Below are positions 30,001 to 33,000 of a stretch of 64,000 bases of DNA, one piece after another (position 1 is the first letter of the stretch; each line of letters starts with the position of its first letter). The stretch lies in NCBI RefSeq assembly GCF_057098645.1, contig NZ_CM169472.1; one strand, given 5' to 3'. Position numbers: made by a program.

Positions 30001-33000
30001 GCAGGTGATTGCTGATTTCACTGTCCTGCTGGAACAGCGCCAACAGATCGCTATATTGGCTAACGGTAGTTAACGTTGTTGCGACCTGAGCACGAACTCC
30101 CGGATCTTCAATGCGTATTTGCCGACGTTGCAGAATTTTCACCGCATTATTGAGCTGCTTTTCCAGCGTTGGTGCATTTTTCTGGATCTGCTCCAGCCCC
30201 AGATTCATCACCATTTGCTGCACCCGCAGGGCGCTAAGGCGCAGTTCATTCATCTGGTTAACATACTCAAGATCGATATCAATCAGCCGATCGAGTGCAC
30301 TTTCTGCGGCCTGACGCTGATCTTGTTCGATCAAATCGTAAATCCCGGCCTGGGTCGCTCCGGCGGAGGTTGCCGCATTATTCGCCTGACCTTGCGCCAG
30401 GCGTGCGATCTCATCGGCGGCGGCGACTATCTGCTGACTGAGTCGCTGTTGTTGCTGGCGCAGTTGCAAACGCTGCCCCACCAGTTCCCCTTGCTGACGT
30501 AACGAACGGGAGATCTCCTGCTCCTGTTGTTCAATAGCGGTGGTATCAAAACCTTGTTCCCGTAACGCTTGCAGCAACGCATTAATCTTCAGGCTTTGTG
30601 CGGTGAGCATTCGCCCCTGCGCCTGCCACATCTTTTCGTTATCGGCACTGGTCAGGTTCTGCGCGGCGAAAAGTTCCCAGGCGCTGGCTTCGCTCAACTG
30701 GCGCGCCATATTCATGGTAGGAATCAATGCCTGAGTATTGTCTTTTTCCACCTGGCTGATAAAGCGCAGGTTGTACCATCCCACCAGGGTACTGGTCAGG
30801 GTTAACAGCGCCATCAGGGCAAAGCCCATCCAGAGTCTTCGGGTCAGGGTTAAATTCACGGTCGGTGTACTTAAGGTGAAAAAGGTTGAGTCGCAAAGCG
30901 GAATGCATCTAGCATAAAGCCTTATTATTGATGAGGCTATCATGCGCGTACTGCTATTTTTACTTCTTTCCCTTTTCATGTTGCCGGCATTTTCGGCTGA
31001 TAACCTGTTGCGCTGGCATGATGCGCAGCATTTCACGGTGCAAGCCTCTATGCCGCTTAAAGCCAAACGCGCATGGAAACTGTGCGCGCTTTATCCGAGC
31101 CTGAAAGATTCATACTGGTTATCGTTGAACTATGGTATGCAGGAGGCTGCTCGCCGCTACGGTGTGGATTTAAAAGTGCTGGAGGCAGGCGGCTACAGCC
31201 AGTTGGCTACCCAGCAAGCACAAATCGACCAGTGTAAACAGTGGGGCGCAGAGGCCATTTTGCTCGGTAGTAGCACGACGTCATTTCCCGATCTGCAAAA
31301 GCAGGTAGCAAGTCTGCCGGTGATCGAACTGGTAAATGCTATTGATGCTCCCCAGGTGAAAAGCCGCGTTGGTGTACCCTGGTTTCAGATGGGCTATCAA
31401 CCTGGGCGATATCTGGTGCAATGGGCGCACGGTAAACCACTGAACGTGCTGTTGATGCCCGGACCCGATAACGCCGGGGGCAGTAAGGAGATGGTCGAGG
31501 GTTTTCGCGCAGCCATTGCCGGAAGCCCGGTGCGTATTGTTGATATTGCGCTTGGTGATAACGATATTGAAATCCAGCGTAACCTGTTGCAGGAGATGCT
31601 GGAACGCCATCCAGAAATCGACGTCGTTGCCGGAACGGCCATTGCGGTAGAGGCGGCAATGGGGGAAGGGCGTAACCTGAAAACGCCGCTTACCGTGGTG
31701 TCGTTTTATCTTTCACATCAGGTGTATCGCGGGCTGAAGCGGGGAAGAGTGATTATGGCTGCCAGCGATCAAATGGTCTGGCAGGGGGAACTGGCGGTTG
31801 AGCAGGCCATCAGGCAATTACAGGGACAATCGGTATCTGATAATGTCAGCCCACCGATTTTAGTTCTGACGCCGAAAAATGCCGACCGCGAACATATCCG
31901 CCGCTCGCTGTCGCCAGGGGGATTTCGTCCGGTCTATTTTTATCAGCACACATCAGCGGCTAAGAAATAACCTTCGCCATGTTGCGTCACCAGTAAATCC
32001 GCGCTGAGTTTATGGCGTAAACGACGAATTAACACATCGACGGTGCGCAGGTCAGGGTTTTCCACCCGACGCGCAGAGAGCATACGCAGCAGACGTTCAC
32101 GGCTGAGAATTTCTCCCGGATTCGTCACAAATGCCACCAACATTTCATACTCTGCGCGGGTCAGTTTAATCGGCTCACCATCCCGCTCCAGCGTATGGCG
32201 CGACACATTCAGGCAATAACCCGCAAAGCGATAGCAGTTGTCCTGAGTGAGCGGTTGAACTTGTCGCGCGAGGTCGATTCGCCAGAGCAGATTTTTTACC
32301 CGTACTACCAGTTCGCGCAGTTCCAGCGGTTTGGTGACGTAATCGTCTGCGCCCATTTCCAGCCCAACAATACGGTCAATCCGATCGCTGCGTCCGGTAA
32401 CCAGAATAATCCCCACCGTTGAGCGTTCTCGCAGGGCGCGGGTTAACATCAGGCCATTTTCATCGGGCAAGTTGATATCCAGCAGAATTAAATCCACCGG
32501 CTGATTCTGCATAATTTCCCGCAGCCCGGCACCGCTCGCCGTAACGGAAACGGTATACCCCTCCTGAGTGAAGTAGGATTGTAATCGCGCCTGGGTAACC
32601 GGCTCATCTTCAACAATAACAATGTGATGTGGCATCAGAGGGTTTTACTCATTCTGTTCATATCTGTTCATATTCTGCCGTAAGCCATTCATCCTGACCA
32701 GTGCCGCTGTTCATATTTGCTCATTAAGATCGCTTCACTAAACCATAATTTTACAGGGGCTATTATGCGGAAACTCTGGAACGCGCTACGCCGACCCAGT
32801 GCTCGTTGGTCGGTACTGGCGCTGGTCGCTATTGGGATTGTGATTGGCATTGCGCTGATTGTATTGCCACACGTTGGGATCAAAGTCACCAGCACAACCG
32901 AATTTTGTGTCAGTTGCCACAGTATGCAACCGGTGTATGAAGAATATAAACAGTCGGTGCATTTCCAGAACGCCTCCGGCGTGCGAGCTGAATGCCATGA

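Follow-up and report, generated by a model that had tools for sequence, protein, structure and literature searches.

Why do two neighbouring genes of the Tor system, torT and torR, run into each other by exactly 28 bp, and does this convergent overlap couple their expression? The junction lies in a stretch of 64,000 nucleotides (contig NZ_CM169472.1 of RefSeq assembly GCF_057098645.1), hereafter the window. The overlap itself is already known: it has stood in the standard Escherichia coli annotation for decades, and the pair has been catalogued as a transcriptional overlap. Our analyses favor a passive origin of its length. In this reading, to which we assign a probability of about 80%, the genetic code forces the overlap to 28 bp.

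Direct reading of the sequence and the ORF list placed torT and torR tail to tail with 28 bp in common, and both stops are unambiguous (Table 1). The TorT protein matched the NCBIfam equivalog model NF008185 over residues 1-339 of 342 (494 bits, cutoff 200) and also scored above the cutoff for TIGR02955. TorR matched the equivalog model NF008034 over residues 1-230 of 230 (425 bits, cutoff 275). These matches, together with the gene order (torS leftward, torT rightward, torR leftward, torCAD rightward), identify both genes as members of the Tor TMAO phosphorelay. They form a convergent overlapping CDS pair on three counts: both are real genes, their opposite-strand 3' ends share bases, and the arrangement recurs in related genomes. 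The overlap and the gene identities given in an earlier note on this DNA are thus correct.

Table 1 Features of the torT-torR region and its surroundings, in window coordinates.
Feature	Position	Strand	Details
torT CDS, periplasmic TMAO-binding protein, 342 aa	30942..31970	+	Stop TAA
torT stop TAA	31968..31970	+	Within ATAACC (31967-31972), the reverse complement of the TorR Gly222-Tyr223 codons GGT TAT
torR CDS, OmpR/PhoB-type response regulator, 230 aa	31943..32635	-	Stop TGA (TCA on the + strand)
torR stop TGA	31943..31945	-	Embedded in the torT codons TAT-CAG (Tyr334-Gln335)
torT/torR tail-to-tail CDS overlap, 28 bp	31943..31970	opposite strands	Direct sequence reading and ORF list
Weak candidate torR terminator, interrupted 13-pair hairpin and U5	31875..31916	-	Relaxed search; inside the torT CDS, 27-68 nt past the torR stop
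C-rich, G-poor tract of the torR-strand RNA, rut-like	31683..31864	-	C/G 1.3-2.2 in 78-nt windows
torS, mechanical ORF, 983 aa	28115..31066	-	TTG start at 31066
torS-torT intergenic region, 82 bp	30860..30941		attB of phage HK022
rutA	47364..48454		
Prophage end	1..7166		Tail tip J, Lom, tail fibres
ymcF/ymcE/gnsA overlaps	26365..26921	same strand	Annotation

An apparent overlap could also be an artefact, caused by an incorrect stop call, sequencing errors or a faulty gene model. The segment 31400-32500 is 100% identical to E. coli O145 RM9872, and our gene coordinates agree with the annotation of that genome. RefSeq (PGAP) gives the same overlap in RM9872, C600 and MG1655 (torT 1056261-1057289 and torR 1057262-1057954 in MG1655), so that the comparison with reference genomes excludes mis-called stops. 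The same overlap is annotated beneath the match in every E. coli record among those listed, and, of 5,426 complete E. coli genomes, 5,415 contain an 84-nt stretch across the junction with at least 95% identity. With the unambiguous stops, the recurrence across six genera described below and the fit of both proteins to their equivalog models up to their ends, an artefact retains next to no probability; reference annotation, conservation and the full-length model matches already refute it.

Two other observations came from the E. coli genome search. Six matches to the torT-torR segment sit on records classed as plasmids. In E. coli MY504 (NZ_AP026902.1), the match was confined to the first 203 nt of a 1101-nt query and the features at that place were torT and torA, which suggests, from the sequence, a deletion that removed the end of torT, torR and torC.

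On the torT side the 28 bp hold the third base of the Tyr334 codon, codons Gln335 to Lys342 (QHTSAAKK) and the stop. On the torR side they hold the third base of the Gly222 codon, codons Tyr223 to Cys230 (YFLAADVC) and the stop. Position 31943 is the third base of both the torT Tyr334 codon and the torR stop codon; therefore the wobble positions of the two genes coincide, which is phase (123:213). The Vibrio TorT structure 3o1h_B aligns to residues 46-332 of E. coli TorT, with the solved chain ending one residue after Tyr332. Distant TorT homologues likewise align only to about residue 332-334, and their tails beyond this point vary in length and sequence. Because both the structure and the homologue alignments end there, the TorT residues coded in the overlap form a tail that extends past the fold. 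TorR aligns to BaeR (4b09) up to its last residue (GEGYFLAADVC versus GVGYRWEADAC), and the structure of the TorR receiver domain (PDB 1zgz) also aligns to it. We take the G-Y-x-x motif of OmpR/PhoB domains to be the last beta-strand of the winged helix, in TorR as elsewhere.

We scanned one genome per species with a TorT profile, called ORFs at the 80 loci recovered and identified TorS, TorT and TorR by BLASTP. The same 28-bp overlap was found at 17 loci in six genera (Escherichia, Citrobacter, Salmonella, Providencia, Pragia and Budvicia). These include E. coli, E. albertii and E. whittamii, four Citrobacter, Salmonella enterica subsp. arizonae and diarizonae, two Providencia, and Pragia fontium with two Budvicia, whose TorT is only 47-53% identical to that of E. 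coli. With this distribution, the overlap is evolutionarily old. Other lineages have other junctions: a 21-bp overlap in a different phase in Serratia sp. H1w, a 4-bp overlap in Edwardsiella hoshinae and Psychromonas, a 7-bp gap in Edwardsiella piscicida and E. ictaluri, and a 51-bp gap in a Colwellia MAG. The 58 Vibrio and Photobacterium loci keep the divergent torS/torT pair, and no TorR homologue follows torT within 3.5 kb.

The two protein ends behave differently across these junctions. All lineages, with an overlap or without one, keep the TorR tail GEGY[FL][LF]xx[DE][VI]. A TorT tail similar to QHTSAAKK is confined to the loci with the 28-bp overlap, and elsewhere the tails are unrelated. 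Every locus with the 28-bp overlap codes TorR Gly222 as GGT or GGC, which gives a torT stop of TAA or TAG. Among the 16 distinct sequences of the 28-bp overlap, variable columns were concentrated at the shared wobble position (9 of 10) and were fewer at the other two positions (3 of 9 at each). The substitution pattern inside the overlap is close to that of the adjacent sequence that codes for torR only.

The Providencia loci stand apart in one respect. TorT of P. burhodogranariea and P. vermicola is 70-71% identical to E. coli TorT, versus 65% for Salmonella TorT, and the TorT and TorR tails of both species are identical to those of Citrobacter sp. On2M. These identities suggest that Providencia acquired the tor regulatory locus horizontally.

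We enumerated all synonymous codings of the TorR tail (EGYFLAADVC and stop) and translated the opposite strand in the torT phase. From the torR stop inward, the torT frame can only encode Gln or stop, His or Gln, Thr, Ser, Ala, Ala, Lys or Arg, and Lys, followed by stop or Tyr. Given this TorR tail, the overlap can be 4 bp or 28 bp; otherwise the torT frame has no stop in that stretch. The 4-bp overlap needs TAA or TAG as the torR stop, and this is the state seen in Psychromonas and Edwardsiella hoshinae. The 28-bp overlap needs GGT or GGC at Gly222. A TorR that ends in Tyr would also permit 7 bp. With the torR stop TGA, which is used in Enterobacteriaceae, the torT frame reads CAN at this place and cannot stop, so that the 4-bp state is impossible and the choice is 28 bp or read-through. 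The overlap, its conservation and the forced antisense coding are direct observations.

Together these results suggest an account of the arrangement. The torT frame enters the end of torR in a phase that brings the third codon positions of the two genes together. There, the TorR sequence Gly-Tyr-Phe-Leu-Ala-Ala-Asp-Val-Cys-stop forces Gln-His-Thr-Ser-Ala-Ala-Lys-Lys on the opposite strand. The first codon able to be a stop is the one opposite Tyr223, which becomes TAA or TAG whenever Gly222 is GGT or GGC. The constraint would lie on TorR, whose winged-helix DNA-binding domain has its last strand encoded in the overlap, and the last eight residues of TorT, which lie beyond the periplasmic-binding-protein core, would be a passenger. 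Indels would wreck the end of TorR, and loss of the torT stop leaves the frame open for another 83 codons and lengthens TorT by 83 aa; therefore the arrangement would be frozen at 28 bp. In this scheme the direction of origin was presumably an extension of torT into torR, and the TorT tail is probably dispensable. The length is fixed because the C-terminal codons of TorR are conserved and the genetic code does the rest. Since the conserved TorT tail and the length are both explained by the constraint on TorR and the code, no selection on the overlap itself is needed.

One substitution bears on this account from the other side. One C-to-T substitution at 31944 would make torT Gln335 a TAG stop and change the torR stop from TGA to TAA, reducing the overlap to 4 bp and leaving TorR unaffected. 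This change was seen in none of the 17 loci with the 28-bp overlap. Its absence could mean that the TorT tail, or the overlap itself, is under selection. A TorT C terminus (QHTSAAKK) with a function of its own, for example in contacting TorS or in stability, would be selected independently of TorR, and the overlap would then persist for the sake of both tails. The pattern T-S-A-x-K/N-K is indeed conserved wherever the 28-bp overlap exists, these lineages lack any premature torT stop, and of the 120 listed E. coli TorT clusters only one departs from a length of 342 aa. However, in phase (123:213) the conservation is forced by the TorR residues, the TorT tails of Edwardsiella, Serratia, Psychromonas, Colwellia and Vibrio show no relation to it and vary in length, and the alignment to the solved TorT structure does not reach the tail. 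We therefore regard a functional tail as very unlikely, and retain the passive, code-forced reading.

Convergent CDS overlaps are a known minority class and are not rare. Lillo & Krakauer (2007, PMC2174442) counted 58 of them in E. coli and found an intrinsic terminator for only 20% of the genes involved. In the window, torT-torR is the only overlap among 10 convergent gene pairs, the other nine being spaced by 37-151 bp. Like the prokaryotic pairs of that survey, torT and torR are two real opposite-strand genes with common 3' ends. The phases of convergent overlaps fit an origin by stop-codon mutation, with loss or shift of a stop proposed (PMC2174442), and this model agrees with torT having run on to the next available stop. 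Unlike most E. coli convergent pairs, torT-torR is in phase (123:213), which is the least frequent convergent phase in this species (22%; PMC2174442). It also differs in that its exact length has been kept over deep divergence, which can be traced to the conserved Gly-Tyr codon pair of the partner.

No terminator can fit between torT and torR because there is no intergenic space; the claim of the earlier note to this effect holds, if trivially. We searched the surroundings for other ways to end the two transcripts. A consensus scan downstream of both stops was blank, and on neither strand did the junction or its vicinity yield a canonical intrinsic terminator. Bidirectional intrinsic terminators between convergent genes were reportedly described by Ju, Li & Liu in 2019 (Nat Microbiol). 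They concern, as torT-torR does, how two convergent transcripts can end within very little space, but the G+C-rich hairpin flanked by A and U tracts that marks them was not found at or near the torT-torR junction. Against shuffled sequences, the + strand RNA across the junction showed no gain in folding (z = 0.05) and the - strand RNA a modest one (z = -1.9). RNAalifold on 13 species gave consensus energies of -1.4 and -2.8 kcal/mol for the two strands, with no conserved structure, and Rfam gave no match around the junction.

A relaxed search returned one weak candidate for a torR terminator, the hairpin at 31875-31916. Its folding energy is -18.2 kcal/mol in the window strain versus -10.9 (z about 0) in K-12. 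Comparative pairing was found in 70.4% of cells versus 67.3% in shuffles, which is marginal, and RNAalifold does not recover the hairpin. Given its weak folding in K-12 and the marginal covariation, we do not claim it as a terminator. In the Colwellia MAG, the only relative with a real spacer between torT and torR, the 51-bp spacer (locus positions 4523-4573) contains a strong 9-bp hairpin (dG -11.5, z about -4), as would be expected of a shared terminator.

The torR transcript apparently ends through Rho. Past the torR stop, the untranslated torR-strand RNA is C-rich and G-poor, as Rho-dependent termination requires, with a C/G peak of 2.21 at 31735-31812. From this composition, the tract at 31683-31864 is a putative Rho-utilisation site. 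Adams et al. (PMC7815308, supplementary file 2) list a bicyclomycin-sensitive, and thus Rho-dependent, termination region named 'antisense torT' on the - strand at MG1655 position 1056830 (Rho score 4.34, p = 2.2e-5). Mapped through the MG1655 torT start, this is about window position 31511, 432 nt past the torR stop. Reads upstream and downstream of it numbered 39 and 14 without bicyclomycin and 52 and 81 with it; coverage is low, the windows are a coarse 800 nt, and these data leave an origin of the antisense RNA at the torR promoter unproven. The Term-seq tables of the same study list no 3' ends for torT, torR, torS, torC or torA.

A second source points the same way. ExcludonFinder places torT-torR among 165 core convergent transcript overlaps, found in at least 50% of 58 MG1655 RNA-seq sets (PMC12288877). 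The Rho region and this entry agree that the torT and torR transcripts overlap, probably by hundreds of nucleotides on the torR side. With no space for terminators of their own, each mRNA would have to end inside the partner gene, apparently through Rho at least for torR. The two mRNAs would then be complementary to each other over much more than 28 nt.

Overlapping transcripts raise the possibility, put forward in the earlier note, that convergent transcription couples the two genes. We found no direct support for coupled torT and torR expression in our computations or in the literature searched, the original 1996 torT paper aside. In an excludon-type device, convergent transcription and pairing of the mRNAs, through polymerase collision or RNase III, would couple torT and torR and tune the TorT:TorR ratio. 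Excludons (PMC12288877) resemble torT-torR in the overlapping transcripts of opposite-strand neighbours, and torT-torR is itself in the E. coli core set. The reported Rho-terminated antisense transcription across torT (PMC7815308) fits such a device. So do the tail-to-tail adjacency with no or minimal spacer, which is kept across Enterobacterales and in Psychromonas, and the absence of the overlap-shrinking mutation from the 17 loci.

However, the ExcludonFinder criterion is coverage overlap only, which any transcribed pair of overlapping CDSs passes. Functional excludons need mutually exclusive expression, often via RNase III, and for torT-torR the literature searched gave neither this nor RNase III processing of a duplex. 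No reciprocal expression has been reported; one transcriptome paper gives torT as about 3-fold up under microaerobiosis and mentions no change in torR. Conserved RNA structure was not found, the Tor systems of Vibrio and Photobacterium have torR away from torT, and the conservation of the 28 bp is fully explained by the TorR codons. TorR has been described as low in copy number, and torS and torT as repressed (PMC9436347, PMC6814406). Because both genes are transcribed very weakly, collisions and duplexes should be rare, and any effect of the overlap on expression is presumably small. We consider an excludon-type device unlikely, and coupling is not needed to explain the conserved 28 bp.

A related proposal is that the conserved tail-to-tail arrangement, which leaves no space for terminators, serves as a cis-antisense device. 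Rho-terminated read-through RNA from torR could pair with the torT mRNA, and vice versa, and this would set the TorT:TorR ratio and add to the known cell-to-cell variability of torCAD induction. We hold it to be quite improbable. The convergent E. coli pair mscL-arfA, which is in the same ExcludonFinder list, offers a comparison: its genes are reported to be linked by antisense RNA crosstalk (PMC10070815). Here mscL-arfA has a reported regulatory effect and torT-torR has none, and the torT-torR overlap includes coding sequences and not just UTRs.

Two points bear on work at this and similar loci. An exactly conserved overlap length need not mean selection on the overlap, because in torT-torR the length follows from the conserved residues of the partner protein and the code. 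For the genetics of the Tor system, an insertion, deletion or fusion made at the 3' end of torT changes torR too. Published torT-lacZ reporter strains carry a torR deletion as well.

Several neighbouring features of the window deserve mention. There are three candidate starts for torS. The mechanical ORF reaches back to its TTG and would overlap the start of torT, and RefSeq places the start at a GTG at 30859 (914 aa). Carey et al. (2019, PMC6814406) obtained torS translational-fusion activity only from a downstream ATG, which in the window would be the Met of MGFALM at about 30829. The attB of phage HK022 in the torS-torT intergenic region (PMC6814406) is unoccupied in the window strain. In the annotation of the identical strain RM9872, rutA is a frameshifted pseudogene. 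After the prophage end at the start of the window come the effector gene tccP2 and a partial espV pseudogene, beside a tRNA-Ser gene. Same-strand CDS overlaps also occur, of 26 bp between ymcF and ymcE and of 11 bp between ymcE and gnsA.
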